This document shows positions 2,391-21,926 of a stretch of 25,350 bases of DNA, piece after piece (positions within the stretch are counted from its first letter, which is position 1; every line of letters starts with the position of its first letter). The position numbers and the translations under genes are program-made. Origin of the DNA: Actinomycetales bacterium (lineage in GTDB: Bacteria > Actinomycetota > Actinomycetes > Actinomycetales > Cellulomonadaceae); assembly GCA_012514835.1 (NCBI GenBank), contig JAAYZM010000297.1:1-25350 (forward strand). The letters are read 5' to 3'. The notes beneath the pieces were generated by a model. That model ran no database searches and was not told the DNA's origin. It was given only the letters and a program-made list of their open reading frames with translations.

Positions 2391-3067
2391 TGGCTCCCGA
2401 GGCTGGCGCGCCGTCGTCGTCCGCGAAGGCCTTCCTCGAGGTCGAGGGCGGCGAGCGGCTCCCGTGCCTGTTCAACCCTGCCCAGCTCCAGGTGACCCGC
2501 TCGAACCGCTGGGAGGGAGCGACCCGTCCCGGGCGCGGCGTGCCCCGCCTGCGCTACGCGGGTGCCGAGGGCGGAACGATGGCGGTCGACCTGTTCTTCG
2601 ACACGACCCACGACGGCAGCGCCGTGACGCGGTACACGGGCAAGATCCACGAGCTCATGGAGATCGACACCTCGCTGCCCGGCTCGGACGAGCGCACGGG
2701 CAACGTGCGCCCACCCACCGTGACCTTCCACTGGGGCGACCTGCACTCCTTCAAGGCGGTCGTCGCGCACATGAGCACGACGTTCACGTACTTCTCCTCG
2801 ACCGGGACGCCGCTGCGCGCCACCGTCTCGCTCGTGCTGCGCCAGTACGAGGCCTCGCACGCCTTCGGGCCCCAGAACCCGACCTCGGGCACCCCCGAGC
2901 CGCACCGCGTCCACCGCGTCCAGTCGGGCGAGACGCTCGACCGCATCGCGGCGCGCTACTACGGCGACTCGACCCGGTGGCGCACGCTCGCGACCGCGAA
3001 CCAGATCCCCGACCCGCTCGCGCTGCGGCCCGGGTCGCTCATCTCGATCCCCCGGGTGGACACATGA
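2390..3067 (+). CDS. CIS tube-initiator-type protein with C-terminal LysM domain (Afp7/Pvc7-like), 225 aa
   Basis: C-terminal part of the 1151..3067 ORF, starting MAPEAGAP at ATG2390 (overlaps the upstream stop). It has the CIS-tube-like N-terminus (LPCLFNPAQL...VDLFFDT...PPTVTFHWG...F...GTPLRATVSLVLRQY) and a LysM motif (HRVQSGETLDRIAARYYGDSTRWRTLATANQIPDPLALRPGSLISIP). Confidence 0.9.
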   Translation: MAPEAGAPSSSAKAFLEVEGGERLPCLFNPAQLQVTRSNRWEGATRPGRGVPRLRYAGAEGGTMAVDLFFDTTHDGSAVTRYTGKIHELMEIDTSLPGSDERTGNVRPPTVTFHWGDLHSFKAVVAHMSTTFTYFSSTGTPLRATVSLVLRQYEASHAFGPQNPTSGTPEPHRVHRVQSGETLDRIAARYYGDSTRWRTLATANQIPDPLALRPGSLISIPRVDT

Positions 3068-4803: not shown

Positions 4804-5228
4804 TGAGCATCCAGCCCACCGACCCGCACGCCGTGCCGACGGACTTCGTCGGCCGCGGCTTCGCGTGGCCCTTCGGCGTCGACCACACGGGCGCGCTGCG
4901 CATGACGAACGGTTCGGACCTCGCCGACTCGATCACGGTCGTGCTCATGACGGCGCCCGGCGAACGGCTCATGCGCCCTCAGTTCGGGTGCCGCATCTGG
5001 GACCTGCTGTTCGAACCCGTGACCGCGAACCTCGTGGGCCTCGTCCGCGAGGCCGTGCGGGACGCCCTCGCGCAGTGGGAGCCGCGCATCGAGGTCGAGG
5101 ACGTGCGCCCCGTGCCCGACGACGACCCTGGCCTCGTGCGCATCGAGATCGACTACCGCGTGCGGGCCACGAACGACCGCCGCAACCTCGTCTACCCGTT
5201 CTACGTCATCCCGCGTGAGGAAGCCTGA
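4803..5228 (+). CDS. GPW/gp25-family baseplate wedge protein (Afp9-like), 141 aa
   Basis: Starts MSIQPTD at ATG4803 (TGATG overlap). Motifs FVGRGFAWPF, LMTAPGERLMRPQFGC, ALAQWEPRIEV, IDYRVRATNDRRNLVYPFY. Confidence 0.93.
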   Translation: MSIQPTDPHAVPTDFVGRGFAWPFGVDHTGALRMTNGSDLADSITVVLMTAPGERLMRPQFGCRIWDLLFEPVTANLVGLVREAVRDALAQWEPRIEVEDVRPVPDDDPGLVRIEIDYRVRATNDRRNLVYPFYVIPREEA

Positions 5229-7171: not shown

Positions 7172-7716
7172 CGCGCACCGACGACTGGCTCCTCGCCCAG
7201 CTGCCCGCGGCGCTCGCCGCCGAGGACTTCTTCGCGCGGTTCGTGCGGATCTTCCAGGCACAGGGCTCGACCCTGCTCGCGCACGCGGACAACCTTCCCC
7301 ACCTTGCCGACCCGGGGGTCGCCCCGGTCGAGCTCGTGCGATGGATGACGCGCTGGCTCGGCAGCCCGGGCCTCGACCCGAGCTATCCCGAGGACATGCA
7401 CCGCGCGATGCTGCGCACCGCGGCCGCGACGCTCCAGTGGCGCGGCACGAGGCGCGGCCTCGTGACGCTGCTCGACCTCGTCACGGGCGGGCAGGTGCGG
7501 GTGAGCGAGAGCGGTGGCGTATGGCCCCAGGACGAGGCGCCCGACGGTCCGCCGTGGGTGCGCGTCGAGGTCGACGACGCGGGCCGGGTCGGTGTCCCGG
7601 ACCTCGTCGACCTCGTGCTCGACGAGGTTCCCGCGCACGTGCGGGCTGAGATCGTCGTGGGTGGGCGGGTCGTGTGGCCCGCGGTCGCCGCGACGGCGGA
7701 AGGTGCGAGGCGATGA
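7168..7716 (+). CDS. Phage tail protein (P2 gpI-like / Afp12-like baseplate component), 182 aa
   Basis: FFARFVRIF..., LADPGVAPVELVRWMTRWLG, LQWRGTRRGL and EVPAHV motifs. ATGA overlap with baseplate J. Confidence 0.85.
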   Translation: MTRTDDWLLAQLPAALAAEDFFARFVRIFQAQGSTLLAHADNLPHLADPGVAPVELVRWMTRWLGSPGLDPSYPEDMHRAMLRTAAATLQWRGTRRGLVTLLDLVTGGQVRVSESGGVWPQDEAPDGPPWVRVEVDDAGRVGVPDLVDLVLDEVPAHVRAEIVVGGRVVWPAVAATAEGARR

Positions 7717-8309
7717 GTGACGTGAACGTCCCGACCCGGGTCCCGACGGGTGTCGCGACGAGCCCCGGCAGCAGCATGGTCGTCGGCGCTGCCCCGCTCG
7801 AGGGCGCGGCCGAGCCGGCGGCGGGCGTCGCCGCGGTGCAGTCCGCGGGTGCCGGGCCGCTCGTCGAGGTCACGTGCCCGGGCTGCGGCGCGCTCGCGCA
7901 CGTGCGCGCGGACCGGCGCAGCGCGGCCGACTTCTGCGCGACGTGCGACCACCCCCTGTTCTGGGCGGGCGTGCGTTCGGCGCCCGAGGGCGTCGCGGAC
8001 GACGCCTCGCTCGACGCGCGGTACCGCGCCCCAGGCGTGGTCGGCACCGCGCAGCACTCCCCGCTCGCGTGCCCGCGCTGCGGCGAGCACAACCACGCGA
8101 CGTGGGGCGCGTGCGTGCGATGCGGCGCCGAGCTCGACCCGCCACCGCCGCCGCCCCCCGTCCCGCCCGCGCCCGCACCCGCGCCGCCGCAGGTGGTCAC
8201 GGTCGAGCGTCCCGTGCCGTGCGGGCACCCGCCCGTGTGGCTCGTCGTGCTGATCTCCTCGATCATCTCCGCGGCCGTCGTCGCGGGGATCTTCCTCGCC
8301 GTGGGCTGA
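7713..8309 (+). CDS. Double zinc-ribbon protein with poly-Pro linker and C-terminal transmembrane helix, 198 aa
   Basis: Start MSDVNVP at ATG7713 (ATGA overlap with the previous stop). Four CxxC pairs (CPGC, CATC, CPRC, CVRC), PPPPPPPVPPAPAPAPP, then a hydrophobic VWLVVLISSIISAAVVAGIFLAVG running up to the stop. Confidence 0.85.
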   Translation: MSDVNVPTRVPTGVATSPGSSMVVGAAPLEGAAEPAAGVAAVQSAGAGPLVEVTCPGCGALAHVRADRRSAADFCATCDHPLFWAGVRSAPEGVADDASLDARYRAPGVVGTAQHSPLACPRCGEHNHATWGACVRCGAELDPPPPPPPVPPAPAPAPPQVVTVERPVPCGHPPVWLVVLISSIISAAVVAGIFLAVG

Positions 8310-8359
8310 GCGGCACCTGAGCGGTCCTTGTCCAGGGACCGTGCCATGCCTCGCCACGA

Positions 8360-8400
8360 CCGGGCGGGCCCTCACGCTCCTCGCGCCCGGGCCCGCCCGG
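8360..8400. terminator. Perfect 12-bp inverted repeat between convergent operons; candidate bidirectional terminator
   Basis: CCGGGCGGGCCC (8360-8371), a 17-nt loop, then GGGCCCGCCCGG (8389-8400), lying between stops at 8309 (+) and 8404 (-). No U-tract. A weaker hairpin (CGGTCCTTG..CAGGGACCG) lies at 8322-8341. Confidence 0.6.
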
Positions 8401-8403
8401 GTG

Positions 8404-11400
8404 TCAGGGGCCGTCCCCGCCCGGCGGGCCACCCCCACCGGGCGGACCACCACCGGGCGGGCCGCCCCCGCCGGGCGTCGTGACCGTGACCACGTGCTCG
8501 CTGCGCGGGTCGGTGCTGCCGGGCGCGTCCCACGTCGCACGGATCGTGATGCTGGGTGCGGCGACGTGCGTGCTCGGGACGGTGAACGACACGGTCCCCG
8601 AGGCGTTGGTCGTGAGGTCCGCGCTCGTCCACACGACGCTCCCCGTCGAGCTGAGCACCGTGACGCGCACCGTGCGGCCCGAGGCGTCGAAGCCCGAGAT
8701 CCCGCCGAGCCGCGCACTGCACGAGATTCCCGTGCCCTCCGTGCGGGTGTCGGGGCAGCCCGTGAACGTGAACCCGAGGTCGCTCAGGGTGCCCGTGACC
8801 GGGACGTCGCGGCTGCCCTCGAAGGGCCCGAGGCCGAGCCCCGCCCCGTCCCACGTCGCGGTGACCTCGAGGGTCCCGGCCGTGACGCGCTCGCGCGGGA
8901 CCGTGAACGTCGCCGACCCCCCGGAGTCGGTCACGAGGTCGACGCTCCAGGACCCGGACGCGACCGTGAGGGAGCGTCCTGCGGCGCTCACCCCCGTGGG
9001 CGGCTCGAACCTGACCGAGCACGCGAAGGCCGTGAGCAGGACCGCGTCGGCGGGGCAGAAGGCGAAGGTGAACACCTCGGGCACGAGCTCGGCCGTGACG
9101 GTCGCGATGCTGCCGGGGCTCGTCCCCGCGACGATCGTGGTCCCGCCCCATCCCGTGGGCGGGGTGACCGAGGCGGAGATCTGCGTGGCGGGGACGTAGA
9201 CGACGGTGTCGCTCGCGCCCGCCGCGACGGTCCGCTCGAGGGTGAAGTCGTCCGGTCCGACGACGACCGCGATCCTCGCCTCGGCACTCGTCGTCGGGGG
9301 GGCGCTCGCGCGCAGCCGGACCTCGCGCTCGGCGACCGTCATCGTGATCGTCGCCGAGCCACCGGTCACGGCAGTCGCGGTGCCCACGTGGCTCCCGTAG
9401 TGGTTCGCGGGTCCTGTCACGGTCGGGGTCCACGTGCCGACCGGCAGCTGGGGGAAGGACGTGGAGAACACGTTGCCGCTCGCCCCTGCCCGGACGAGGG
9501 TCGCGGGACCGAAGGTCGCGGGGTCGCCGTCGTCGGTCTCGCCCTCGAGCACGACCTGGGCGCCCGTGAGGTCGGTCCCGTGGGTCGAGGTCACCTGGAC
9601 GGTCGCGGCGACGAGGTCGAGGTCGGCGACCAGGTCGACGATCGTCGACTGGCCCGAGGACACCGAGATCGTGCGCATCGCGATCAGCGCGCCGGGCGGC
9701 TCTCCCTCGGCCGCGGGCTCGCGCGCCTCGACGACGTAGTCGCCCGGGTCGACGTCGAGCATGCGGTACTGGCCGATCGAGGAGGACACGGCGGACGCGA
9801 CGACCTCGGTCCCGTCGACCTCGCGCAGCGTGACGGTCTTGCCCACGAGCGGCTGGACGTTCCCGTTCGCGAGGCGCCGCCCGACCGTGCCCTGGACGGA
9901 CCCCGAGGGCGTCGTGAGCGCGATCGGGAGGGTCTTGTGCGTGTCGGCCTCGACCGTGTGCTTGACGTGGGCCGAGAGGAAGGTCTTGCCCGCAACGCTC
10001 ACGTCGTAGGTGATCGGCAGGAGATCGACGAACAGGTACTCGCCCTCACCGACCCCGGTGCACGCCGGGGGCGGGTCGGTGAGCCGCGCGCACGGCAGGA
10101 TCTCGCGGATCCCACCGCCCTCCTCCCAGCGCAGCTTGACGTCCATCCCGTCGACCTTCGTGCTGCCGTCGAGCACGGTCACGGTGAGCTTCGCGGGGAG
10201 GGGCGCGAGGTCCAGGTCGACGTCACCCCTCTGCTCGCCCTCCTCGAGGACGACGTCCTCGGAACCTCCTTCGGCGTAGGTGCGCGGGAGGTGTCCCGGC
10301 GCGGTCGCCCGGACCCGCCACGCGACCCCGCTCTCGAGCCCTTCGTCCTCGACCGTCCCGGTGATGCGGTAGGCGCCGAGATCGCCAGACGTCGCACCGA
10401 AGGTCTGCGTCCCGCCGGCGACGGGCCGTTCGGCCGTGACCTGGGCCCCGGGGAGCTCGACGACCCAACCCGAGTCGGCGGAGATCACGGTGCGGATCGT
10501 CCCCGAGACCGCACCGAGCCGCGTGAGGTTCGCGGCGTGCGGCGGTTCGGCGGGTCGGCCTGCGGTCACCACGACGCTCTCCTCGAGGTGCCGGTACCCC
10601 GCCGCCCGGGTCTCGACCGTGTAGCTCCCGGGGACGAGGCCTCCGAGGTCGACGCGCCCGTCGGGGCCGGTGACGCCCTGACCGACCTCGGTCGCGCCCC
10701 GGGTCACCGCGACGTGCGCGCCGGCCACGGGCGAGCCCTCGTCGCGCGCCTCGACGACGAGCCGCCCGTGCTGCGTGAGCGTCCACAGGGCGGTCTGCTC
10801 GCTCGCGCCCGGCTCGACGTCGAGCTCGAGGTCGACCCCCGTGAACCCTGGCCGGGCGACGCGCACCGTCCACACCCCGGGGCGGATCAGGTTGTCGCCC
10901 GAGCTCGCCGAGTCGGACACGGTCACCGCGCCCGTCTCGGGGTCTGCGACGAAGCTCACGACCCCGGCGCCGGGCGGACGCCCGAGGATCTCGAAGGTCA
11001 CGTCGTCGTACGCCCCGGGCCCGTCGGGGACCGCGGGGTCGAGCACGACCTCACCCTCGAGGGGGACGGGCAGCGGGGTCAGGGTGATCATCCCGATCTC
11101 GCCGGCCGCGACCGGGACGACCGGCCGCGCCTGGAACCTCGGGTCCGGGACGCGGACGGTGACCATGCGGTCGATCAGCTCGAACGCCTGCCCCGCGCAC
11201 TGCGCGTCGACCGTGCACACCGCGACCGTCCCGCTCGCGTCGGTGCGGAAGGTGCGGTCGACCGTGATCGGGATCGAGCCCACGAAGTGCGTCACCCCGC
11301 TCACGATCACCTCGACGTCGCGCAGCGGTGTGAGCGGCCCGTCGGTCTTCTGCCAACCGACCTGGAACTCGAACGAGGGGATGCCGGTCGTGACGATGAT

Positions 11401-14400
11401 CTGCGCCGCGACCTCCTGGTTGAGGTCGACCTGGACGGTCGTGGACCCCACGACGTTGCCGCTCACGCCGTCGAGGACCTCGAACACCCACGTGCCCGAG
11501 GCGAGCCGGGCGACCGAGACGAAGCCGTTCGTCGTGCGGTGCTCGGTCCCCCCGGTCTCGCCCGCACGACGCACGTTCACGGGCACGTCGTCGACCGCGA
11601 CGATCGATCCCGAGTCGCCCGCCTTGAGCACCGTGAGGTTGACGATCCCGAGCCGCTCGAGCGTCACCTCGTAGCGCCGCAGGTCGCCCGGGGCGAGCGA
11701 GATGCGCACGGGGTCGGGTGTGACGTACGAGCCGTGGACCCCGTGCAGCTCGACCCAGTAGGTGCCCGCGCGCAGGCGGTCGATCGTGTACGAGCCGTTC
11801 GTGACCTCGGCGCACCGGTGCGTCGCCGAGGCGCAGTGCTCGGCCGTGACGTCGCACGGGTCGCCCGTGATCGCCTCGGGCGCGGGGCCGTCCGCGGGGC
11901 TCACGACGACGCACGCCCCCGCAGGAAGCACGCCGACGCGCGGGATCACGGTCCCGGTGAGCGAGGGTGAGGGCTGGAGCGCGACGGTCGCGGCCTCGGC
12001 CCGCACGCCCATGCCGACCGTGACCTGGACCGAGCTCGGCTCATACCCGGGGGCGGACAGGTGGACGGTGAACCGCCCCGGGGGCAGTGCGTCACCCGTC
12101 GCGGGGTCGCTCGCGGGCAGGACGTAGGCCTCGGAGGGGTCGACCGCGGTCTCGAAGGACGCCGGGGTGCCGTCGAGGCGTGTGAAGTCGACGCGCGCGT
12201 GCACCTTGCACTCCTCGCCGCCGAACAGCACGACGCAGGTGAGCACGCCGCCGTGGCTCGCGTCGACGACGCGTCCCGTGATCGACCCGGTCGAGGTCAG
12301 ACCGTCGTCCTTGACGGGGGTGAGGCGAAGGTCGACGTGCGCCTCACGCCCGTCGCTCACCTCGACCTCGGCGTAGTCCTGGGTGAAGCCGAAGGACTGC
12401 ACGCTCAGCACGTACGTGCCCGCGGGAATGCCCGAGAACAGGAACGTGCCCTGACCGCCCGAGTCGGACATCGTGCGGAAGGACTCGGACTCCGAGGTCA
12501 GCACGAGCCCAGCCCCCGCGATCCCGGGTCCCTCGGTCGAGGTCACGGTGCCCTTGACGGCCCCTCCGCGGGTACCGGCCGAGATGTCCCAGTCGGTCCG
12601 GCCCGCCGGGCCGAGCCGTACCTCGCGCGTCACGGTGTTGTACCCGGGGCCCGAGACGGTCACGGTGTAGGTCGCGGGGACGGGCAGGTCGGGGAGCACG
12701 AAGGTGCCCGCGTTCTCGACCCCCGTCGCGGTGGTCGCGGTGCGCGAGGCCGAGCCGTTCGCGGCGGTCACCGTGAGCCCGCCGATCCCGCCCGTGCCGC
12801 CGAGCGCGTCCTTGCCCAGGACGCGCCCCGAGATCGAGGCGAGCCCGGGGCGCAGCCGCAGGTCGACCGTCCGCACGCCCGCGGCGGGCAGGGTCACGAG
12901 CCGCGAGCGCGCCCCGAGCCGGTCCGAGGCCGCGGTCACGAGGTAGGTCCCGGGGGTCGCGAGACCCTCGACCTGCCAGCGGCCGACCTCGCCGCGCGTC
13001 GCGGTACGGGTCGTGACGGTCGTGGTCCCGTCGCTGATCGTGACCTCGACCCCGCCCGCGGGTCCGTCGGGACCTGTCACGAGCCCCGAGAGCCGTCCCG
13101 TGCCCGCGCGCAGCTCGGTCTCGAGGGCCGCCGCGGCGAGCTCCTCGCCCGTGCGCAGCACACGCTGGGTCTGGAAGCCGGGCTTGCTGATCGACACGAG
13201 ATAGCGGGCCGTCGGGGACAGCCCCGCGATCGCCCACGCACCCTCGTCGTCCGAACGGACCGTCATGCGCTGGGTCGAGTCGTCGGTCGGGGCGAGCGGG
13301 AGGGCGGTCGCGAGGATCTTGCCGCCCGTCGCGGAGGCGGACGGCGCGCGCACCGCGCGCACCGCGCTCACGAGGCCGTACACCGCGCTCGCGGCGGGAT
13401 GCATCGCGGCGAGGGTCTCGCCGACCGCCTCGCCCGGGCCGCGCGCGTCGGCCGACGACGGCGCGTCGTCGACCCCGTCCCACAGGCTCGCTGCGGGCAG
13501 GACGGTCACGGTCGCCCCGCCCGGGCTCGGTCCGGTGATCTGCCCCGCGGCACGCACGCCGCTCGCGTCGTCGGGCGTCTCGTCGGTCTCGTCGCCCGGC
13601 GCCTCCTCGCCCTGGCCGTCCCCGCCCGCACCGGGGCCGGGCGCTCCGGGGCCGGGCGCGCCGTCGGTCGGCTCGGCGCCCGGGTCGTCCACCGCGACCT
13701 CGACCCGGTCGACCGAGGTCGAGCGGTCGGCGAAGCGGTCCGCGAGGTAGGGCAGGGCGACCGAGACGCCCGCGAGCCACAGCGCGAGCACGCTCACGAC
13801 ACCCACGACGCGTGCGAGGCCCGAGCCGACGAGCGGGCGCACCGAGAGGTTGCCCTGGACGTGCTGGGGCGCCGAGCGGCCCGTCGCGGTCACGGTGTAG
13901 GAGTGCCGCCGCCGCCAGCCGACGAGGCGCACGCGCGGGGCACGCACGCGGACGGGGACGCGCACCGTCGTCCTGGGCGCGACCCGCACGGGCCCCTCGG
14001 GCAGCTCGACCTCGAGGTCGTCGCGGCCCACGCCCGTCAGCGCGACGTCGGCGACATCGTCCGAGGCGTTGACGAGCACGACGTCGACCGCGGCCGAGCG
14101 GACCGCGCGCGCCTCGACCGGCTCGACGCTCATGACGGGCTCGCTCTCGCCGTCGACGCGCACGCTCGCGTCCGCGAGGACCCGGGCCGCGCTCCCGCGG
14201 ACGACGGCCTCGACCGCGACCACGAAGGGGTAGTCGCCCGGTGCCGCCCCCGCGGCGGGCACGAGGGGGACCGTCACGGTCACGGTCTGGTCGGCCGCGA
14301 CGCCCGGGACCACGAAGGTCTCGGGGGCCCACGTGGGCTCGAGCCCGACGACGGCGACGCGCACGTCGGCCGCCTCGGGGGCGAGGTTGCGCACGTGCAC

Positions 14401-14478
14401 GACGAGCGGAGCGGTCTCGCCCGAGGGGGCGTGCGAGCCCGGCTCGACGAGGATGCTCGGCGGTCTCAGGGTGCTCAT
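8404..14478 (-). CDS. Giant single-pass membrane protein: two N-terminal Ig-like domains, TM helix, ~14 carboxypeptidase-regulatory-like repeats, two terminal Ig-like domains, Gly/Pro tail; 2024 aa
   Basis: Start MSTLRPPS at 14478 with AGGAG 6 nt upstream (the track extends to 14589, overlapping the upstream gene). TM VVGVVSVLALWLAGVSVALPYL (~13744-13809). Repeated G-x-[FYW]-x3-[GD]L-x-PG-x-Y-x-V motifs typical of the carboxypeptidase-regulatory-like (CarboxypepD_reg/Cna-B-like) fold. Confidence 0.88.
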   Translation of the reverse strand: MSTLRPPSILVEPGSHAPSGETAPLVVHVRNLAPEAADVRVAVVGLEPTWAPETFVVPGVAADQTVTVTVPLVPAAGAAPGDYPFVVAVEAVVRGSAARVLADASVRVDGESEPVMSVEPVEARAVRSAAVDVVLVNASDDVADVALTGVGRDDLEVELPEGPVRVAPRTTVRVPVRVRAPRVRLVGWRRRHSYTVTATGRSAPQHVQGNLSVRPLVGSGLARVVGVVSVLALWLAGVSVALPYLADRFADRSTSVDRVEVAVDDPGAEPTDGAPGPGAPGPGAGGDGQGEEAPGDETDETPDDASGVRAAGQITGPSPGGATVTVLPAASLWDGVDDAPSSADARGPGEAVGETLAAMHPAASAVYGLVSAVRAVRAPSASATGGKILATALPLAPTDDSTQRMTVRSDDEGAWAIAGLSPTARYLVSISKPGFQTQRVLRTGEELAAAALETELRAGTGRLSGLVTGPDGPAGGVEVTISDGTTTVTTRTATRGEVGRWQVEGLATPGTYLVTAASDRLGARSRLVTLPAAGVRTVDLRLRPGLASISGRVLGKDALGGTGGIGGLTVTAANGSASRTATTATGVENAGTFVLPDLPVPATYTVTVSGPGYNTVTREVRLGPAGRTDWDISAGTRGGAVKGTVTSTEGPGIAGAGLVLTSESESFRTMSDSGGQGTFLFSGIPAGTYVLSVQSFGFTQDYAEVEVSDGREAHVDLRLTPVKDDGLTSTGSITGRVVDASHGGVLTCVVLFGGEECKVHARVDFTRLDGTPASFETAVDPSEAYVLPASDPATGDALPPGRFTVHLSAPGYEPSSVQVTVGMGVRAEAATVALQPSPSLTGTVIPRVGVLPAGACVVVSPADGPAPEAITGDPCDVTAEHCASATHRCAEVTNGSYTIDRLRAGTYWVELHGVHGSYVTPDPVRISLAPGDLRRYEVTLERLGIVNLTVLKAGDSGSIVAVDDVPVNVRRAGETGGTEHRTTNGFVSVARLASGTWVFEVLDGVSGNVVGSTTVQVDLNQEVAAQIIVTTGIPSFEFQVGWQKTDGPLTPLRDVEVIVSGVTHFVGSIPITVDRTFRTDASGTVAVCTVDAQCAGQAFELIDRMVTVRVPDPRFQARPVVPVAAGEIGMITLTPLPVPLEGEVVLDPAVPDGPGAYDDVTFEILGRPPGAGVVSFVADPETGAVTVSDSASSGDNLIRPGVWTVRVARPGFTGVDLELDVEPGASEQTALWTLTQHGRLVVEARDEGSPVAGAHVAVTRGATEVGQGVTGPDGRVDLGGLVPGSYTVETRAAGYRHLEESVVVTAGRPAEPPHAANLTRLGAVSGTIRTVISADSGWVVELPGAQVTAERPVAGGTQTFGATSGDLGAYRITGTVEDEGLESGVAWRVRATAPGHLPRTYAEGGSEDVVLEEGEQRGDVDLDLAPLPAKLTVTVLDGSTKVDGMDVKLRWEEGGGIREILPCARLTDPPPACTGVGEGEYLFVDLLPITYDVSVAGKTFLSAHVKHTVEADTHKTLPIALTTPSGSVQGTVGRRLANGNVQPLVGKTVTLREVDGTEVVASAVSSSIGQYRMLDVDPGDYVVEAREPAAEGEPPGALIAMRTISVSSGQSTIVDLVADLDLVAATVQVTSTHGTDLTGAQVVLEGETDDGDPATFGPATLVRAGASGNVFSTSFPQLPVGTWTPTVTGPANHYGSHVGTATAVTGGSATITMTVAEREVRLRASAPPTTSAEARIAVVVGPDDFTLERTVAAGASDTVVYVPATQISASVTPPTGWGGTTIVAGTSPGSIATVTAELVPEVFTFAFCPADAVLLTAFACSVRFEPPTGVSAAGRSLTVASGSWSVDLVTDSGGSATFTVPRERVTAGTLEVTATWDGAGLGLGPFEGSRDVPVTGTLSDLGFTFTGCPDTRTEGTGISCSARLGGISGFDASGRTVRVTVLSSTGSVVWTSADLTTNASGTVSFTVPSTHVAAPSITIRATWDAPGSTDPRSEHVVTVTTPGGGGPPGGGPPGGGGPPGGDGP
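8407..8475 (-). repeat. Gly/Pro coding repeat at the C-terminus (PGGGGPPGGGPPGGGGPPGGDGP)
   Basis: Three GGG(G)PP units read directly from the translation; CCGGGCGG/CCGGCGG recurs on the + strand. Confidence 0.8.
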
Positions 14479-14494
14479 CGTGGGCTCCTGGGGC

Positions 14495-17020
14495 TCATGG
14501 CACGATCTCGATCTCGATCTGGGCGTCCTCGCTCGCGTCGAGCGTGAACGGCGAGGAGGCGCCGAGGATGGTCCCGCCCGCGGAGGCACGGACCTCGAGG
14601 ATGTAGTTGTCGGGGGCGTCGACGTCGAGGAAGTCGAACGCGCCGTCGTCGTCGGTCGTCGTCGTGCGCAACGCGCCCACCGCGGTCCCGTACGCGGCCG
14701 CGCGGTAGAGCAGCACGGTGCGGCCCGCGACCGGCGTGCCGCCCTGGACGACCGTGCCGCGCACCCGGGCGGGCGCGACGAGCTCGGCGTCCTCGCGCAG
14801 CACCTGTCCCGCGGTGAGCACGACGATCTGCGAGGTCGCCCGGGTCCCCGCGCGCGCGAAGGACAGCGTGTACGTCCCGGGCGGGATCTTCTCGATCCGG
14901 AACAGGCCCGCGTCGCGGCGCGGCGTCGAGGCGGTCGTGACGCGCCACTCGGCGGTCCCCGAGGTGAGCGTGACGATCACGTTGGGGGCGTTCTGGGCCG
15001 GCGAGCCGTCGCCGAGGGTCTGCGTCACGCGCCCGTGCAGGACGGCCGTCGCCGAGCGCATCGCGACGTCGACGCGGTCCGCCGACGGCGCCCCCGCGGT
15101 CACCTGCCCGAAGGCGTCGAGGCTCACCGAGAGCACCTGCTGGGCGAGGTCGGTGCGCTCGAAGGTCAGGGTGTACGTCCCGGGCACCGCGAGGCCGTCG
15201 ACGTCCCACGCGCCCACGGGGTCGGTCGACCGGGTCACGGTCTGCAGGGTCGTCGCCCCGTCCGAGACGGTCACCGAGACCCCGCCCGCGTCGCCCCCGC
15301 CCTCGACCGTGACGCGGCCCGCGAGCGCGCCGCGGTCGCGCCCGAGCACGATGTCGACGCCCGTGAGCTGCTGGCCCTGCGTGAGGGAGAAGGACAGCGT
15401 CGCGGCGGCGTGGTCGTCGGCCGTGACGACCACGGTGTACGTCCCTGGCGTGGGCAGGCCGAGCAGGCTGAACGCTCCCTCGTCACCGAGCTCGGCCGTC
15501 TCGCTGATCGTCTCGAGGCGGGTCGCGCCCGAGACGGCGACGACGCTCGCTCGGCCGAGCGGGCCCTCGGGCCCGAGCACGGTGCCCGCGATCGTGCCGT
15601 CGCCGAGCACGAGCGGCAGCTCGACCCCGAGGCGGTTCTCGCCCGCCGCGACGTCGAGGCGCTGGACCTTGGTCGCGAAGCCCTGCTTGACGACGACGAC
15701 GTCGTACACCGCCGGGGAGGGGACGTCGGCGAGCTCGAAGGTCCCGTCCGAGGCGACCGGGACCGTTCGCACGACGGCCCCCGTCGACGCGCCGGGTGCT
15801 TCCCCGGGCTCGGGGCCGACCTGCCCCGCGAGCGGTTCGCTGTCGAGCGGCATCTCGAGGTGCACGGTCGCGCCCCCGACGTCCGAGCCGACCACGGTGC
15901 CCGCGATCGTCGCGGGGACCCCGCCCGCGACGACGAGCAGCCCTGTGACGGTGTCACCCTCGCCCGCGGCGACCGGCACCGCGTCCCCGGGGGCTGCCGC
16001 CGCGGGGTACCAGACCTCGGCGAAGCCTGCGCCGCGCACCCGCACGAGATACTCCCCCGCGGGGAGGCGGTCGACCGCGAAGGCGCCCGCGGCGTCGGTC
16101 GCGGTCGTCGCGACCGCCTGTGCCTGGTCGTCCGCGGCGAAGACGTCGACCGCGACGCCCGTGAGCGGTGCGCCCGTCGCGAGCTCGACGACACTGCCCG
16201 CGAGCCCCGAACGGCCCGAGGTGACCCCGCCGTCGCGGGCCTGGGCGACCTCGATCGCGAGCCGGCGGTCGGCCGCGGAGCGCTGCACGACCGAGGACAG
16301 CGCGACCGTGATGACGACCGCGAACACCGTGATCGCGAGCACGAGGCCCGCAAGACCGAGAGCACTGCGCCCGATGCGGGCCTTCTGCACGAACACCCCG
16401 GCTGCCGCGGGCGGGTCGTCGGGGCCGGGCGCGCCCGGTCCGGCGTACCGCACCTCGAAGGGGCGCATGACGGGGTCGCCGAACCAGCGACGCCGGGCGC
16501 GCACCTCGAGCACCGCGGGCTCGCTCGACCCGGGCGCGGGCGCGAGGGTCGCGGGCGTGAAGGTCATCTCGGCCTGTGCCTCGGGGTCGACCCCCACGAG
16601 CCGCACGGGGTCGGTCGTGTTGCCCGCGTTGTGCACCGTGAGGTGGAAGACCGCGTTCGCCCCGCCCGTGACGGTGCGCGGGTCGACGTCGATCGTCGTG
16701 CGCGGCTGGGCGGGCACCTCGACGACCGTGTCGAGCACGACCACCTGACCCGTGCCCGTGCGGTCGAGCACCTGGACCGTGAAGTGCCGGTCGCCCGCGA
16801 GCGTGCCCTCGGGCAGGGTCAGGCTCACGCGCGTCGTGAGGGTCGCCCCCGGGAACAGGCGCGGGCTCGGGTCCTCGATCGTGACCCAGCTCGCGTCGGC
16901 TCCCAGGACGCGCACGTCGTAGCCCGCGATCACGTCGCTCGTGTTGGTGAGCGTCACGAGCATCTCGACGGGCGAGCCCGCGTACGCCGTGACGCGGCGT
17001 GGTGCGACGTCGACGTGCAT
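14495..17020 (-). CDS. Single-pass membrane protein: two N-terminal Ig-like domains, TM helix, six carboxypeptidase-regulatory-like repeats; 841 aa
   Basis: ATG17020 lies 1 nt after the upstream stop. TM LGLAGLVLAITVFAVVITVAL (~16298-16360). Six repeat cores: GAFAVDRLPAGEY, GTFELADVPSPAVY, GAFSLLGLPTPGTY, GAWDVDGLAVPGTY, GLFRIEKIPPGTY, GAFDFLDVDAPDNY. Confidence 0.9.
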   Translation of the reverse strand: MHVDVAPRRVTAYAGSPVEMLVTLTNTSDVIAGYDVRVLGADASWVTIEDPSPRLFPGATLTTRVSLTLPEGTLAGDRHFTVQVLDRTGTGQVVVLDTVVEVPAQPRTTIDVDPRTVTGGANAVFHLTVHNAGNTTDPVRLVGVDPEAQAEMTFTPATLAPAPGSSEPAVLEVRARRRWFGDPVMRPFEVRYAGPGAPGPDDPPAAAGVFVQKARIGRSALGLAGLVLAITVFAVVITVALSSVVQRSAADRRLAIEVAQARDGGVTSGRSGLAGSVVELATGAPLTGVAVDVFAADDQAQAVATTATDAAGAFAVDRLPAGEYLVRVRGAGFAEVWYPAAAAPGDAVPVAAGEGDTVTGLLVVAGGVPATIAGTVVGSDVGGATVHLEMPLDSEPLAGQVGPEPGEAPGASTGAVVRTVPVASDGTFELADVPSPAVYDVVVVKQGFATKVQRLDVAAGENRLGVELPLVLGDGTIAGTVLGPEGPLGRASVVAVSGATRLETISETAELGDEGAFSLLGLPTPGTYTVVVTADDHAAATLSFSLTQGQQLTGVDIVLGRDRGALAGRVTVEGGGDAGGVSVTVSDGATTLQTVTRSTDPVGAWDVDGLAVPGTYTLTFERTDLAQQVLSVSLDAFGQVTAGAPSADRVDVAMRSATAVLHGRVTQTLGDGSPAQNAPNVIVTLTSGTAEWRVTTASTPRRDAGLFRIEKIPPGTYTLSFARAGTRATSQIVVLTAGQVLREDAELVAPARVRGTVVQGGTPVAGRTVLLYRAAAYGTAVGALRTTTTDDDGAFDFLDVDAPDNYILEVRASAGGTILGASSPFTLDASEDAQIEIEIVP

Positions 17021-17021
17021 G

Positions 17022-19244
17022 TCAGCCCCCCGCCGCGATCGTGAAGGACTGCGTCGAGGTCCGCCCGCGCCGCACCTCGACGAGGGCCGTCGCGAGCGTC
17101 GTCTCGCCGCGCACGACGGTCACGGTCCACGTCCCGGGCTCGAGGTCCGGGATCGTGTACGTCCCGCCTGCGCCGGAGGACGTCGTCGTCGTGGTGAAGA
17201 TCGCGCGCCCGTCGGTCGCCCGTACGGTCGCTCCCACGAGGCCGACGTCGCCCTGCGTCACGCGGCCCTCGACCCGTCCGAAGGCCGAGGCCATCGTCAC
17301 GGGCGCGAGCCCGCCCGAGCCGACCACGACCGGGACCGTGACCGCGGTGTAGCCGGGGTGCGTGAACGTCAGCGTCACCTCGCGACCCTGGGGCAGGCCC
17401 GTGAGGGAGAAGGTGCCGACCGCGCCCGCCGTGAGCGTCGTCGTCTCGACGCCCTCGACGCCGCCCGCCGTGACCGTGACCCCCCCGAGCGGGTCGCCCG
17501 AGCCGTCCTGGACGATCCCCGTGACCGTCCCGACGCCGCCCGTGAGCGCGACCTCGAGGTCGGTGAGCGCCTCGCCGGGCCCGAGCGTGACGACCGCGGT
17601 CATGGTCTCGAAGCCGTCCTTCGCGAACGCGAGCACGTAGGTCGCCGGGGTCGGCAGCGAGCCGATCACGAACCGCCCGACCTGGCCCTGGGTCGGCGTG
17701 CCGACCTCGACGAGCGTCCCGTCGACCGTGGTCGTCACGGTGACCCCGCCGAGGCCCGAGACGCCGTCGGTCACGGTCCCAGCGACCTGCCCGTCGCCTG
17801 CCGAGAGGCGCACGTCGAGCGCGAGCCGGACCTGCCCACCCAGGACGCGCTCGGTGAGCCTGCTCGGCTGGTAGCCCTCGGCCGTGAAGGAGATCTCGTA
17901 GGTGCCCGGGGCGGGCAGGTCGTCGAAGCGGTAGGTGCCGTCGGCCCCCGCGCTCGTGGTCCGCGCGCCCCCGTCCGCACCGGGCCACACGGGGGTCGCG
18001 GTGACCTCGACCGCGACCTCGCCGTCGGGCAGGCCCGTCGTGACGGTGCCAGCGAGCGAGGCCGCGTGCCCGTCGATCACGAGGTCGACCCCTTCGGTGA
18101 CCTCCTGGGCGCGCACCGCGACCGGCTCGGCCGCCGCGTCGCTGCGTGCGCTCGGCCACCAGACCTCGTCGTAGCCCGGGCTCGCGACGCGCACGAGGTA
18201 GCTGCCCGGGAACAGGCCCGCGAGCTCGAAGGTCCCGTCGGCCTGCGTCGCGCCGGTCGAGGTCACGACGAGCCCGTCGCGCGTCTCGCGCAAGAGCTCG
18301 ACCGTGAGCCGCCCCACGCCCTGCCCGTCGGCCGAGCCGCGGACGGTCCCGGTCACGACCCCGCCGACCCCCGCGGGCAGCGCGCCGTCCTTGGGCAGCG
18401 CCCCCGCGGGCGGTGCCGGCTCGGCAGGGGCCTCCCCCCGCTCGGCTGCGGCCTGTGCCGCGGCGGCAGCGAAGAGCGAGCTCGGTGCGGCCTTCGTCAG
18501 GGGGTCGGTGCCGAGCACGAGGCCCATGCCGAGCACGAACGCGAGGGCCCACGCGGCGATGATGAGCAGCAGGACGAGGACCGTCACGAGGCCGCGCGAG
18601 ACCGTCGAGCGCTGCCGGAACACGAGCTCGGTCTGCGACGTGACGCCGCGCGCGTCCGCGACGAGCGTGAGCGGGCGGTCGCGGTCCGAGCCGTAGAGCT
18701 GACGCGGACCGCGCACGACGACGGTCGACGTCGCGCTCGTGCCTACCGGGACCGAGAGGGTCGAGGGGACGAGCGTCGCGGTGAGCGAGCGGTCGGTGTC
18801 CTCGGCGCGCAGCGCGACCTCGAGCGGCTCGTTGCCCTCGTTCGCGACGTGCAGCGTGAAGCCCGCACCCGAGCGCGCCCGCACGAGCGAGGGCTCGGCG
18901 TGCACGCGCAGCGCGGGGCGCGGGGGCACCTCGAGCTCGACCGCGTCGACGGCGGGCTCGGCGCCGGGCGCACGCCCGCGCACCACGAGGTCCACGACGT
19001 ACCGCCCCGCGGGGAAGTGCTCGGGCAGGTGGAAGCTCACGCGCAGCGTGCCCCGGGCCTCGGGGAACAGCACGAGCGGGGCGGGCGAGACCGTGACGTA
19101 CGGTGCGGTCGGTCCGTGCACCTCGACACCCACGGCGTCGATCACGTGCGAGGTGTTGACGACCTCGAGGTTGAGGCCCGCGCGCGGGGAGGCCCCGGAC
19201 GGCGGCGCGACCTCGAGCCGGGACTCGGCGGCGACGACCCTCAT
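17022..19244 (-). CDS. Single-pass membrane protein: two N-terminal Ig-like domains, TM helix, five carboxypeptidase-regulatory-like repeats; 740 aa
   Basis: ATG19244 overlaps the DUF4255 stop (ATGA) and is preferred over the track's GTG19313. TM LVTVLVLLLIIAAWALAFVLGMGLVLG (~18510-18590). Five repeat cores: GTFELAGLFPGSY, GTYRFDDLPAPGTY, GRFVIGSLPTPATY, GTFSLTGLPQGREV, GTYTIPDLEPGTW. Confidence 0.9.
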   Translation of the reverse strand: MRVVAAESRLEVAPPSGASPRAGLNLEVVNTSHVIDAVGVEVHGPTAPYVTVSPAPLVLFPEARGTLRVSFHLPEHFPAGRYVVDLVVRGRAPGAEPAVDAVELEVPPRPALRVHAEPSLVRARSGAGFTLHVANEGNEPLEVALRAEDTDRSLTATLVPSTLSVPVGTSATSTVVVRGPRQLYGSDRDRPLTLVADARGVTSQTELVFRQRSTVSRGLVTVLVLLLIIAAWALAFVLGMGLVLGTDPLTKAAPSSLFAAAAAQAAAERGEAPAEPAPPAGALPKDGALPAGVGGVVTGTVRGSADGQGVGRLTVELLRETRDGLVVTSTGATQADGTFELAGLFPGSYLVRVASPGYDEVWWPSARSDAAAEPVAVRAQEVTEGVDLVIDGHAASLAGTVTTGLPDGEVAVEVTATPVWPGADGGARTTSAGADGTYRFDDLPAPGTYEISFTAEGYQPSRLTERVLGGQVRLALDVRLSAGDGQVAGTVTDGVSGLGGVTVTTTVDGTLVEVGTPTQGQVGRFVIGSLPTPATYVLAFAKDGFETMTAVVTLGPGEALTDLEVALTGGVGTVTGIVQDGSGDPLGGVTVTAGGVEGVETTTLTAGAVGTFSLTGLPQGREVTLTFTHPGYTAVTVPVVVGSGGLAPVTMASAFGRVEGRVTQGDVGLVGATVRATDGRAIFTTTTTSSGAGGTYTIPDLEPGTWTVTVVRGETTLATALVEVRRGRTSTQSFTIAAGG

Positions 19245-19810
19245 GAACCGTTCCCCGGCAGTCGCGAGAGCGCGGGCTCGACCCCCTCGACCGCCGTCGG
19301 TGCCGTCTGCCACGGGTAGGCGTCGGCCGCGACCGTCGCATTCAGCACGAACGAGGCCTTGAGGTGCCCGCCGATGCCCGACCAGACCTCGCGCGGACGG
19401 GTCGCGTCGTCGCCGCCGAGCGCGAGCTGGACCGAGGAGTCGAGGGGTGCGGCGACGTGCTCGGCGGGCACGACGGGGTGCGCGAGCAGCCGGGTGAGGA
19501 CGTCACCGAGCAGGGCGTGCTCGTCGCGGACCGAGCCGGCCCATGCCGAGACGAGGTAGGACAGCTGGACCATGGGCAGCGCGAAGCGGCGTTGGGTGCG
19601 CCCGTCGGGGCCCTGCCGCCGCTCCTGGACGCGCGGCGGCTGGGGAGAGCGCGAGACCCCGAACAGGAAGAGGTTGACCGTGAGGCGGTTGACGCTCGCC
19701 GACCACGTCGAGCTCGGCGCCTCGAACGACACGTCCCCCTGCTCGGTGGGGAGCGGGAGCGTCGTGCGGAGCAGCTTCTCGATTCCGTCCTCGACGGCGG
19801 GGATCAGCAC
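19241..19810 (-). CDS. DUF4255 / Pvc16-Afp16-like CIS cap (tail terminator) protein, 189 aa
   Basis: GTG start with AGGAGG at 19820-19815. Motifs DVSFEAPSSTWSASVNRLTVNLFLF, LSYLVSAWA...DEHALLGDVL, EVWSGIGGHLKAS fit DUF4255. Confidence 0.9.
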   Translation of the reverse strand: MLIPAVEDGIEKLLRTTLPLPTEQGDVSFEAPSSTWSASVNRLTVNLFLFGVSRSPQPPRVQERRQGPDGRTQRRFALPMVQLSYLVSAWAGSVRDEHALLGDVLTRLLAHPVVPAEHVAAPLDSSVQLALGGDDATRPREVWSGIGGHLKASFVLNATVAADAYPWQTAPTAVEGVEPALSRLPGNGS

Positions 19811-19916: not shown

Positions 19917-20000
19917 CGAACTTCGCCGCGAGGACTCGACGCGGGCCCGCCCCGGGTGCGAAGGTGCCAGGTCGGGCGGGTCGTGACGAGGGAGGTCGGG

Positions 20001-21926
20001 ATGGTCGCGGCGAGCTGGCCGGACGACGTCGTCGCGGCGCTGCGCGACGCGCTCGAGCGGCGCGGGACGTCGTGGTCGCACCGGGGCGAGGTGGCGCGCG
20101 CGCTCGACGTGCTCGCCGACCCCGCCTCGCGCCTTGCGGCCCTCGGGCCGGGGCTCGCCGACGTGCGCATCGCCTTCTCGCTCGACGACGACGACGCCGC
20201 GCTGCTCGCGGTCGCGCTGCTTGCCGAGGCACATCCCGCGGGGCACCTCGCGTGCGGTCTGCTCGCGGGTGACGAGGGTGCGGCCCGACCCACGGTCGCG
20301 CTCGCGCTCGAGCTCGCGGGGCTGCCTGCGACCTCGGCCCGGGCACGCGACCGGCTCGGTCCGCTCGGGCTTCTGCGCCGCACGGGTCTCGTCGAGCTCG
20401 ACGGTGCGGACGTCCTGCTCTCGCGGCGCCTCGTGCTGCCCGACCGGGTCACCGCGCGCCTGCTCGGCTCGCACGCCGCCCCGGCCCGCCTCGTGCCCCT
20501 GCTCGTCGAGCCCGTGCCCGCCGAGGTCCCGGGGCTCGCGGAGGTCGCCGCGGCGCTGCGCGCGGGCGAGGGGCTCGTCTGGGTCCACTCGCCGTGGGGC
20601 ACCGCGGGGGCGGCGCTCGCGGTCGGGGCGTGCCGCGAGCTCGGTGTGACGTGCCTCGTCGTCGACCTCGAACGCCTCGCGGTCGACGCGGCGGGGCGGC
20701 GCGACCCGGTCGAGGTCACGGCGGCGGTGCGTGCCGCGAGCCTCGAGGCGGGTCTCGACGGCTCGGTCCTCGTGCTCGTCGGTGCGCACCTCGCGGGTCA
20801 CGACGTGCGGATCTTTGACGGGTGCGTCGTGCCGGTTGTCGCGGTCGGACGCACCGCGTGGGACCCGCGCTGGCACGCGACGCTCCCGCCCGCGGTCCTC
20901 GCGGGCCGCCTCCCGGTCGAGCAGCGCGCGACGGCGTGGGAGTCCGCGGTCGGGCCCGAGGCGCTCGACCGCGAGGTGCTCGCGCTGCGCATGACGCCCG
21001 AGGAGATCGTCGCGGTCGGACGGCGCGCCCGGGCCGACGCGCGCGCCGCGGGCCGGGCGGTCGACGTCGTCGACGTGCGCCGCTCGGCGCGGCGGCTCGG
21101 TGGGGCGGGGGGCTCGCGCGTGCGCACCGGGACGAGCCCCGCGACGCTCGACGACCTCGTCCTGCCCGAGCACACCCGGCGCGAGGTCGTGCGCCTCGTC
21201 GGCTGGGCGCGGGACCGCGACGAGGTGCTCGCGCTCGGCGACCTGCACGGCAAGGGCGGGAAGGGCTCAGGCATCTGCGCGCTGTTCTCGGGCAGCCCCG
21301 GGACGGGCAAGACCCTCGCGGCGCACGTCGTCGCGGACTCCCTCGGGATGGACCTGTTCCAGGTGGACCTGTCGACCGTGGTCGACAAGTACGTCGGGCA
21401 GACCGAGAAGAACCTCGAGCGCGTCTTCGAGCAGGCCGAGTCGCTCAACGCGGTGCTGTTCTTCGACGAGGCCGACTCGCTGTTCGGCTCCCGGTCGGCC
21501 GTCAACGACTCGCGTGACCGCTATGCGAACCAGGAGGTCGCCTACCTCCTGCAGCGTATGGAGGCGAGCGAGGGCATCACGATCCTCGCGACCAACCTGC
21601 GCGGCAACCTCGACCCCGCGTTCGCCCGCCGGCTGCACTTCATGATCCACTTCCCCGACCCTGACGTGCCCACCCGTGAGCGGCTGTGGCGCCACCACCT
21701 CGCCCAGCTGCCGTCGACCGACCCCGCGGACCCGGTCGACGTCGAGATGCTCGCGCGTGACCTCGAGATCGCGGGCGGCGACGTGCGCAACATCGTGCTC
21801 GCGGCGACCTACGACGCGGTCGCCGAGCAGGTCGACCTCGGGATGCGGCACGTGCGGGGCGCGGCGCTGCGCGAGATGTCGAAGCTCGGCCGCCGGGTGT
21901 CCGGTTCGTCCTGGTCGGGTGCCTGA
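20001..21926 (+). CDS. Afp15/Pvc15-like AAA+ ATPase, 641 aa
   Basis: ATG20001 with GGAGG 5 nt upstream. Walker A GSPGTGKT (21291-21314), Walker B VLFFDEAD, DLSTVVDKYVGQTEKNL, DRYANQEVAYLLQRME and ILATNLRGNLDPAFARRL. Winged-helix-like N-terminal region and a degenerate first AAA-like module. Confidence 0.93.
   Translation: MVAASWPDDVVAALRDALERRGTSWSHRGEVARALDVLADPASRLAALGPGLADVRIAFSLDDDDAALLAVALLAEAHPAGHLACGLLAGDEGAARPTVALALELAGLPATSARARDRLGPLGLLRRTGLVELDGADVLLSRRLVLPDRVTARLLGSHAAPARLVPLLVEPVPAEVPGLAEVAAALRAGEGLVWVHSPWGTAGAALAVGACRELGVTCLVVDLERLAVDAAGRRDPVEVTAAVRAASLEAGLDGSVLVLVGAHLAGHDVRIFDGCVVPVVAVGRTAWDPRWHATLPPAVLAGRLPVEQRATAWESAVGPEALDREVLALRMTPEEIVAVGRRARADARAAGRAVDVVDVRRSARRLGGAGGSRVRTGTSPATLDDLVLPEHTRREVVRLVGWARDRDEVLALGDLHGKGGKGSGICALFSGSPGTGKTLAAHVVADSLGMDLFQVDLSTVVDKYVGQTEKNLERVFEQAESLNAVLFFDEADSLFGSRSAVNDSRDRYANQEVAYLLQRMEASEGITILATNLRGNLDPAFARRLHFMIHFPDPDVPTRERLWRHHLAQLPSTDPADPVDVEMLARDLEIAGGDVRNIVLAATYDAVAEQVDLGMRHVRGAALREMSKLGRRVSGSSWSGA

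Follow-up and report, generated by a model that had tools for sequence, protein, structure and literature searches.

How does a contractile injection system (CIS) in the cytoplasm of a monoderm bacterium engage the membrane and the thick wall outside it? CisA is so far the only adaptor, and published CIS papers remark on the missing tail fibres and the missing trans-envelope complex. Here we describe three adjacent genes for membrane-anchored, long-stalked proteins, P1, P2 and P3 (together, the trio), which follow a CIS cap gene on a 25-kb contig with 75% GC (guanine plus cytosine) from an 80%-complete metagenome-assembled genome (MAG) of an Actinomycetales bacterium of the Cellulomonadaceae (JAAYZM010000297.1; the whole stretch of 25,350 nucleotides (nt) is referred to as the window). 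The closest described proteins are Sco4256-4258 of Streptomyces coelicolor, which were named 'CIS-associated effectors' (Casu 2023, PMC10066040) and whose family was labelled 'putative toxin' (Vladimirov 2023, PMC10020575). Deletion of sco4256-4258 phenocopies a CIS deletion, which makes the family, by the Streptomyces genetics, necessary for a working CIS, and overexpression of the proteins in E. coli is toxic (PMC10066040); additionally, Sco4256 was recovered together with purified particles (PMC10020575). The same paper tabulates, in its Supplementary Data 4, homologues 'in subtype IId eCIS' (extracellular CIS), among them two adjacent accessions of Ilumatobacter and entries from Sanguibacter and Cellulomonas.

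The trio has much in common with Sco4256-4258: a homologous tandem immunoglobulin (Ig)-like N-terminal module (N-module) followed by one transmembrane (TM) helix, an arrangement as tandem paralogues, and a place in a CIS locus beside the ATPase and cap genes. The differences begin outside the membrane, where Sco4256-4258 have a short C-terminal ricin, ChW or lectin domain whereas P1, P2 and P3 have long prealbumin-like arrays (5, 6 and ~16 domains). The published family has a conserved N-terminal domain of ~200 aa with a PapD/pilus-chaperone-like Ig fold. A C-terminal lectin/toxin-like domain, which the trio lacks, is present in about one third of the published homologues and is not strictly defining. 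Unlike sco4256-4258, the trio genes appear to be co-transcribed with cap in one operon; their hosts are mostly non-filamentous, and their triplication appears to be separate from, and much older than, the Streptomyces duplications. A sequence-only reading of the window knew of no description of this variant. The family itself is published (PMC10066040, PMC10020575), as is its taxonomic reach (PMC10020575); what is new is the long fixed-stalk trio, its age and spread, and the evidence on its topology, and in the searched full-text literature we found no description of a trio with long stalks or of a CIS together with CarboxypepD_reg repeats.

Homology, architecture and topology of P1, P2 and P3

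The cap, P1, P2 and P3 genes form a minus-strand operon, in that order, that converges on plus-strand baseplate genes (Table 1). The TGA of cap overlaps the ATG of P1 as ATGA, as read from the sequence, P1 and P2 are separated by 1 nt, and P2 and P3 are separated by 16 nt that contain GGAG. A profile built from the three N-modules of the window matches two tandem proteins of an 8-Mb, 76% GC Streptomyces-type genome (E values of 1e-29 and 1e-28). Both consist of an N-module and a TM helix, followed by ChW in one and Ricin_B in the other, and their genes are flanked by sheath/tube genes on one side and by ATPase/cap/LuxR genes on the other; this is the layout of S. coelicolor SCO4253-4263, and the domain plan agrees with the one published for Sco4256-4258 (PMC10066040). 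By BLASTP, window and Streptomyces-type N-modules are 27% identical over 256 colinear residues that run through the TM helix (E 5e-17). The Foldseek neighbours of a P2 model are the ASH domains of FAP47/HYDIN, CEP192, 2QSV, RbmA, PapD/FimC/CsuC and transglutaminase C-terminal domains, and the HHpred table for Sco4256 names the same structures (PMC10020575). By these sequence and fold comparisons, we consider the N-modules of P1, P2 and P3 to be homologous to the Sco4256-4258 family.

Among themselves, the three N-modules are paralogous by BLASTP, with E values of 1e-15 for P1/P2, 2e-3 for P1/P3 and 2e-4 for P2/P3. Pfam and NCBIfam gave no model for the module, only weak matches to FixG_C and Cep192_D3, and its fold was obtained from an AlphaFold2 (AF2) model of P2 residues 1-262 that was based on an 81-sequence alignment and has a pLDDT (predicted local distance difference test) of 97.3. 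The model contains two Ig-like sandwiches, residues 2-102 and 108-212, and then a helix, residues 218-261; its first strand begins at residue 2, and a disordered N-terminal leader is absent. A conserved R177 and an invariant G181 in the same alignment coincide with a basic/aromatic motif that precedes the helix. Each of the three proteins has one strong hydrophobic helix (P1 243-261, P2 223-241, P3 261-279, counted along the translations as printed), and all of them lack an N-terminal signal peptide.

Beyond the helix, Pfam CarboxypepD_reg (PF13620) is matched with E values of 2e-42 in P1, 4e-42 in P2 and 4e-55 in P3 (143.8, 142.9 and 184.4 bits, all above the gathering cut-off of 32.3 bits). 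A custom repeat hidden Markov model finds five significant repeats in P1, six in P2 and at least 11 in P3, in which the spacing suggests ~14, followed by two weak Big-like domains. Pfam and structure searches revealed no catalytic, lectin or toxin domain in the ~3600 amino acids (aa) of P1, P2 and P3. The tip of P3 was modelled as four beta-sandwiches (pLDDT 79) that most resemble the extender regions of adhesins and the MG domains of macroglobulins; a structure search with this model returned generic beta-sandwich matches only, and no binding or enzymatic domain. Rods of tandem beta-sandwich domains measure ~3-4.5 nm per domain. At this spacing, the stalks of P1 and P2 would be about 15-25 nm long, on the order of the thickness of an actinobacterial wall, and that of P3, at about 50-70 nm, would overshoot the wall.

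Which way do these proteins face? Across 243 family members, the 15-residue flanks of the helix have net charges of +2.37 (N side) and +0.23 (C side), and the N flank is more positive in 210 of the 243 and less positive in 10. Ectodomains of the third (P3) type contain a mean of 14.6 Cys residues, and in 48 of 49 their number is even. The 14 Cys that P1, P2 and P3 of the window have between them are all in the P3 ectodomain, in seven close pairs, and the N-modules are Cys-free. AlphaFold DB clusters contain the module and helix fused to peptidoglycan-binding, PASTA, SLT transglycosylase, matrixin, C39 peptidase-like and Ser/Thr kinase parts, and Streptomyces-type family members have them fused to ricin or ChW domains; the tandem-Ig module looks like a general cytoplasmic module that is paired with wall-facing domains. 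Because there is no signal peptide, and because of the flank charges, the even and paired ectodomain Cys and the wall-acting fusion domains, we favour a topology in which P1, P2 and P3 are N-in/C-out signal anchors with an oxidised ectodomain on the wall side.

Much of this picture had been proposed by the sequence-only reading, and it stands: a single operon headed by the cap gene, three paralogues of shared architecture, a basic/aromatic motif (now placed at R177/G181), an N-in/C-out topology, which is favoured, non-catalytic stalks of graded length (5, 6 and ~14+2 repeats), and a relation to SCO4256-4258 that the profile and Foldseek comparisons bear out.

Conservation of the trio and its link to CIS genes

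When the N-module profile was run against 1.84 billion proteins, it matched 6333 cluster representatives, 290 of them at E <=1e-30. Among the best 150 matches, ~90 have the plan of module (residues 1-255), TM helix and 5-6 repeats in a total of 740-900 aa, four or five are ~2000 aa long, and none of the short proteins carries a ricin domain. Full-length orthologues reach best identities of 47% for P1, 50% for P2 and 55% for P3. Scanning of one genome per species with an alignment of P2-type proteins yielded 80 related loci, from Cellulomonas, Actinotalea, Pseudactinotalea, Ruania, Georgenia, Sanguibacter, Jiangella, Phytoactinopolyspora, Nocardioides, Nakamurella, Frankiales, Acidimicrobiia and Solirubrobacterales; the nearest (80% identity) is in an uncultured Cellulomonadaceae MAG. 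Three tandem N-modules are present in 67 of the 80, with products of ~720-870 aa for the first gene, 740-1170 aa for the second and, where complete, 1800-3080 aa for the third. A cap homologue is located just upstream in 72 of the 80, most of the others being cut contigs, and the zinc-ribbon and baseplate genes follow the trio wherever the flank reaches far enough. Even metagenome contigs at 37-40% identity retain the entire locus. The arrangement is not peculiar to one genome but a conserved and widespread locus type. An outcome that the sequence-only reading named as speaking against its proposal, a trio that commonly occurs without CIS genes, is not what the loci show for trio-type proteins.

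In a maximum-likelihood tree of 112 N-modules, the first, second and third proteins form position-specific clades (support 99/98, 100/98 and 93/74), and the Streptomyces-type modules group with short single-copy N-module forms in a separate clade (100/95). Because the three clades are position-specific and the Streptomyces-type forms fall outside them, the tree indicates an old triplication that arose independently of the Streptomyces duplications. The number of repeats is similarly stable: 66 of 67 first-type proteins have five repeats, and 46 of 67 second-type proteins have six, the rest having a weak sixth repeat under threshold. Judged from these counts, repeat number has been fixed by selection over a long evolutionary distance. 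The orthologues of P3 are colinear to about residue 1750, and the last ~250 residues align in the nearest relative only, a pattern that marks the distal tip of P3 as variable and fast-evolving.

One member of this family carries an unexpected label. The third-type module of a trio in a MAG labelled Proteobacteria (L064, JAKBFW010000050.1) is ~0.06 changes per column away from that of a Cellulomonadaceae contig (L082), and the label probably goes back to wrong binning in the public entry.

How closely is the module tied to CIS genes? In a sample of 401 Actinomycetota genomes, 30 contain the N-module, 32 contain Pvc16_N (one unpublished genome, G088, being counted only within these 32) and 24 contain both. 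The cap gene is directly upstream in all six sampled trio genomes. Trio-linked caps score 56-89 bits against Pvc16_N, compared with 116-175 bits for other actinobacterial caps, and are a divergent subgroup that may be co-evolving with the trio. On the evidence of gene neighbourhood, trio-type proteins are tightly linked to CIS loci.

Possible roles of the trio

We favour, at a probability of roughly 0.55, the reading that the trio spans the envelope and serves the CIS as a dock, trigger or sensor, and is not a set of tube-borne toxins; we infer that the proteins reside in the membrane, form a hetero-oligomer, touch the CIS and have the docking/sensing role itself. The trio would be a permanent resident of the membrane of the producing cell, probably in hetero-oligomeric form, with its folded PapD/ASH-like tandem-Ig modules in the cytoplasm facing the CIS particle or its loading/capping machinery. 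The signal-anchor helix would lead, outside, to acidic non-catalytic beta-sandwich rods of 5, 6 and ~16 domains, of which the two short stalks would span approximately the thickness of the wall and the long one would overshoot it and bear the fast-evolving tip. Such an arrangement would give a cytoplasmic CIS what a trans-envelope complex or tail fibres give other systems. An envelope partner fits better than a tube-borne toxin because the proteins have a resident-membrane signature, no toxin domain, fixed stalk lengths and a variable tip, and because the locus has a separate DUF4157 candidate. A bolder form of the proposal, which we put forward tentatively and with some doubt, is that the trio is the missing trans-envelope apparatus of Gram-positive CIS, a heteromer whose Ig modules capture the particle and whose stalks couple outside contact or a wall signal to docking/firing, or guide the tube; Sco4256-4258 would then be envelope adaptors.

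That the three proteins form a heteromer had already been suggested from the sequence. When the three N-modules and their TM helices were modelled together, the first Ig domain of P2 was placed against that of P3, with a score of 0.38 versus 0.00 for the best control. Of solved complexes, 51 of 78 pass the mark of this method, as do 2 of 108 mismatched pairs, and passes at <=0.60 are more often wrong than right unless the complex was likely beforehand. The suggestion has weak in-silico support, for a contact between P2 and P3, and the prediction by itself does not count as evidence of binding.

Several points weigh against an envelope partner. The gene right after the cap is in the classical payload position of PVC/Afp-type loci, and, since domains of 3 nm in a row could be accommodated by a lumen of 4 nm, size alone would permit loading. 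The complex prediction is weak (0.38), and the role proposed for P1, P2 and P3 rests on sequence. Tubes of the Streptomyces triple mutant have a mostly empty lumen, from which the authors infer cargo (PMC10066040), and Sco4256-4258 are not in the cryo-electron microscopy model of the extended particle (PMC12237407). Additionally, six of the sampled genomes have an N-module but no Pvc16_N. The proteins in question are short (~400-560 aa), and five of them, from genomes that belong to one family (G390, G251, G147, G264 and G290; loci L028, L031, L032, L034 and L035), form one tight subclade that consists of N-module and TM helix, 397-407 aa from the start of the module, and that may work without a CIS.

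Could the trio instead be CIS effectors or cargo, as published for Sco4256-4258, with the N-module targeting the particle and the TM helix and outer domains acting after firing, for example by membrane insertion? The homology to Sco4256-4258, the likeness of the post-cap position to the PVC/Afp payload position and a beads-on-a-string shape that could fit the lumen all speak for this possibility. So do the empty lumens, the CIS-deletion phenotype and the E. coli toxicity reported in Streptomyces work (PMC10066040), and the detection of Sco4256 in purified particles (PMC10020575). However, the ~3600 aa of the trio contain neither a toxin or enzyme domain nor a disordered N-terminal leader; the positive-inside signal (210 versus 10 proteins) and the even, paired, ectodomain-only Cys suit Sec-inserted resident membrane proteins; a repeat number fixed over long evolution suits a ruler more than a toxin; the locus has its own DUF4157 candidate effector; and overexpression of a membrane protein is often toxic without specific activity. 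The published lumen-loaded effector function fits the architecture of P1, P2 and P3 poorly, and we regard it as unlikely for them. The empty lumen of the Streptomyces mutant (PMC10066040) can also be explained without the proteins being cargo, if they are membrane-tethered assembly or loading factors. In that case their PapD-like Ig pair would act as a chaperone for adding cargo or cap to the distal end of the particle as it grows, and their stalks would do no more than fix the envelope site. Adjacency to cap throughout the family, in the trio and Streptomyces-type clades alike, the ATGA overlap of the cap stop and the P1 start, the divergence of the trio-linked caps (56-89 versus 116-175 bits) and the chaperone-like fold would all be in keeping with this role, but it leaves unexplained why there are three paralogues and why 11 kb is spent on conserved ectodomains and a variable tip, and the similarity to PapD is at the level of fold only; we consider it quite improbable.

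We give still less credence to the idea that the proteins are ordinary surface stalks or adhesins, serving for instance to space cells or to shape the wall, that share the regulation of the CIS and have no physical link to it. The ectodomains do resemble giant-adhesin extender regions and S-layer or pilus stalk domains, and some genomes with short N-module proteins have no cap gene. Against this, the linkage and order relative to cap are near-invariant across classes, a large conserved cytoplasmic module would be unnecessary, neither a sortase signal nor a signal peptide is present, and Sco4256 co-purifies with particles (PMC10020575). Among described stalk proteins, the SdrD B repeats, SpaA-type prealbumin domains and the MpIBP extender are, like the trio, rods of tandem rigid beta-sandwich domains, yet the trio, unlike Gram-positive stalk proteins and giant adhesins, has no sortase/cell-wall anchor in addition to no signal peptide, is held in the membrane by an internal signal-anchor helix that follows a cytoplasmic module of 220 aa, and has a fixed repeat number where that of adhesin stalks is variable. 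Tail fibres of the Afp13/Pvc13 type, which have no TM helix and whose genes follow those of the baseplate, were also considered for the trio and rejected given the internal TM helix, the cytoplasmic module and an operon headed by cap; Pfam and structure searches gave no fibre-family match for P1, P2 or P3.

Turning back to an envelope partner for the CIS, we can compare the trio with systems that do such work. CisA (SCO4242), a firing adaptor (PMC12237407), is like the trio proteins a bitopic N-in/C-out membrane protein encoded in a CIS locus, and likely does the same kind of job, linking a cytoplasmic CIS to the envelope. Its N-terminus is disordered, with a Cys-rich, Zn-binding segment ahead of the TM helix, and its conserved C-terminal domain is small (~150 aa), in contrast to the folded, Cys-free Ig pair and long stalks of the trio. 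Homology between the two was rejected on the grounds that the trio has folded Ig pairs without Cys and that the gene in the CisA position of a Streptomyces-type locus resembles the zinc-ribbon protein of the window only. The latter protein, which occupies the CisA position of the window after Tail_P2_I, has four CxxC pairs, a C-terminal TM helix and no ectodomain, and weakly matches the second zinc ribbon of a 491-aa CisA-like Streptomyces-type gene product (46% over 35 aa, E 0.004); this tail-anchored protein is kept in related loci. The trio locus type combines a CisA-like protein without an outer domain and Sco4256-like proteins with very large ones. The TssJLM complex of the type VI secretion system and the thylakoid-anchored CIS of Anabaena (cited in PMC10020575) embody the same concept, dedicated membrane proteins that position a contractile machine and set the site at which it fires; those anchors are baseplate-bound, whereas the trio genes travel with cap, and there is no relation in sequence or fold.

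About 11 kb is given to three membrane proteins whose outer lengths are conserved across classes of Actinomycetota, and their homology to proteins labelled effectors provides a testable alternative for the function of the family. The question can also be asked in cultured genera, among them Cellulomonas, Sanguibacter, Nocardioides and Nakamurella, that are mostly non-filamentous and largely unicellular and for which developmental cell death is no obvious purpose of a CIS.

Gene models and surroundings of the operon

Real frames were chosen by GC content at third codon positions (GC3). By this measure, a 795-aa open reading frame at 16954-19341 in the raw list is in the wrong frame and was rejected. 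The starts of P1 (ATG at 19244) and P3 (14481) were set from alignments of full-length orthologues.

Table 1. Features of the window, with positions counted from its first letter
Feature	Position	Strand	Description
Open reading frame, at least 795 aa	3..2390	+	Pro/Ala-rich; no Pfam match; upstream of tube initiator
CIS baseplate genes	2390..7716	+	tube initiator/LysM, VgrG-like spike, gp25, Baseplate_J, Tail_P2_I (Pfam)
Double zinc-ribbon protein, tail-anchored	7713..8309	+	Pfam DZR E 7.7e-8; TM residues 190-208 of 211; closes baseplate operon
Convergent intergenic gap, 94 nt	8310..8403		GC-rich inverted repeat GGGCGGGCCC ... GGGCCCGCCC, read from sequence
P3, 2025 aa	8404..14481	-	N-module ~13810-14481; TM ~13753-13809; acidic Gly/Pro linker; at least 11 (~14) prealbumin-like repeats
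P3 distal part	~8407-9144	-	poorly conserved; two Big-like domains and Gly/Pro tail
P2, 841 aa	14495..17020	-	tandem-Ig N-module ~16355-17020; TM helix ~16298-16354; six CarboxypepD_reg repeats 14498-16297
P1, 740 aa	17022..19244	-	tandem-Ig N-module ~18588-19244; TM helix ~18531-18587; linker and five CarboxypepD_reg repeats 17025-18530
Cap / tail terminator gene, Pvc16_N (DUF4255)	19241..19810	-	first in operon; Pfam PF14065 E 2.5e-25, 89.7 bits; GC3 0.93
AAA+ ATPase	19956..21926	+	divergent from cap gene; Pfam AAA E 3.6e-28, WHD
eCIS_core/DUF4157 protein, 1086 aa	22038..25298	+	eCIS_core E 1e-28; C-terminal part without recognised domain

The inverted repeat between the two converging operons is a possible bidirectional terminator, judging by its sequence and position. 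A scan for consensus promoters and terminators gave no match, and the repeat was missed because it has no T tract.

The eCIS_core/DUF4157 protein is a more conventional effector candidate of the locus, and it and the Pro/Ala-rich reading frame upstream of the tube initiator are more conventional candidates for cargo or tape measure. A tape-measure-protein-like cargo, as described in PMC13277306, is the other cargo candidate in the locus besides the eCIS_core protein.

The same MAG contains a second eCIS_core-ATPase-cap-P1-P2-P3 arrangement (contig C570, ~2500-15000) at 70-79% amino-acid identity, as well as two sheath genes, on contigs C141 and C99. The second arrangement reflects either two related strains or species that were binned together or two loci in one genome.

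DNA that is nearly identical to the window is present in compost, manure, soil and rhizosphere metagenomes (13 studies). Contigs from compost RNA libraries cover the whole locus and are compatible with its transcription, which they do not prove because the coverage is even and extends across intergenic DNA. At 8399-8402, at the Gly/Pro tail of the P3 3' end, these contigs carry a 9-nt insertion (or one of 2+7 nt), which is an in-frame polymorphism in tail length between strains.

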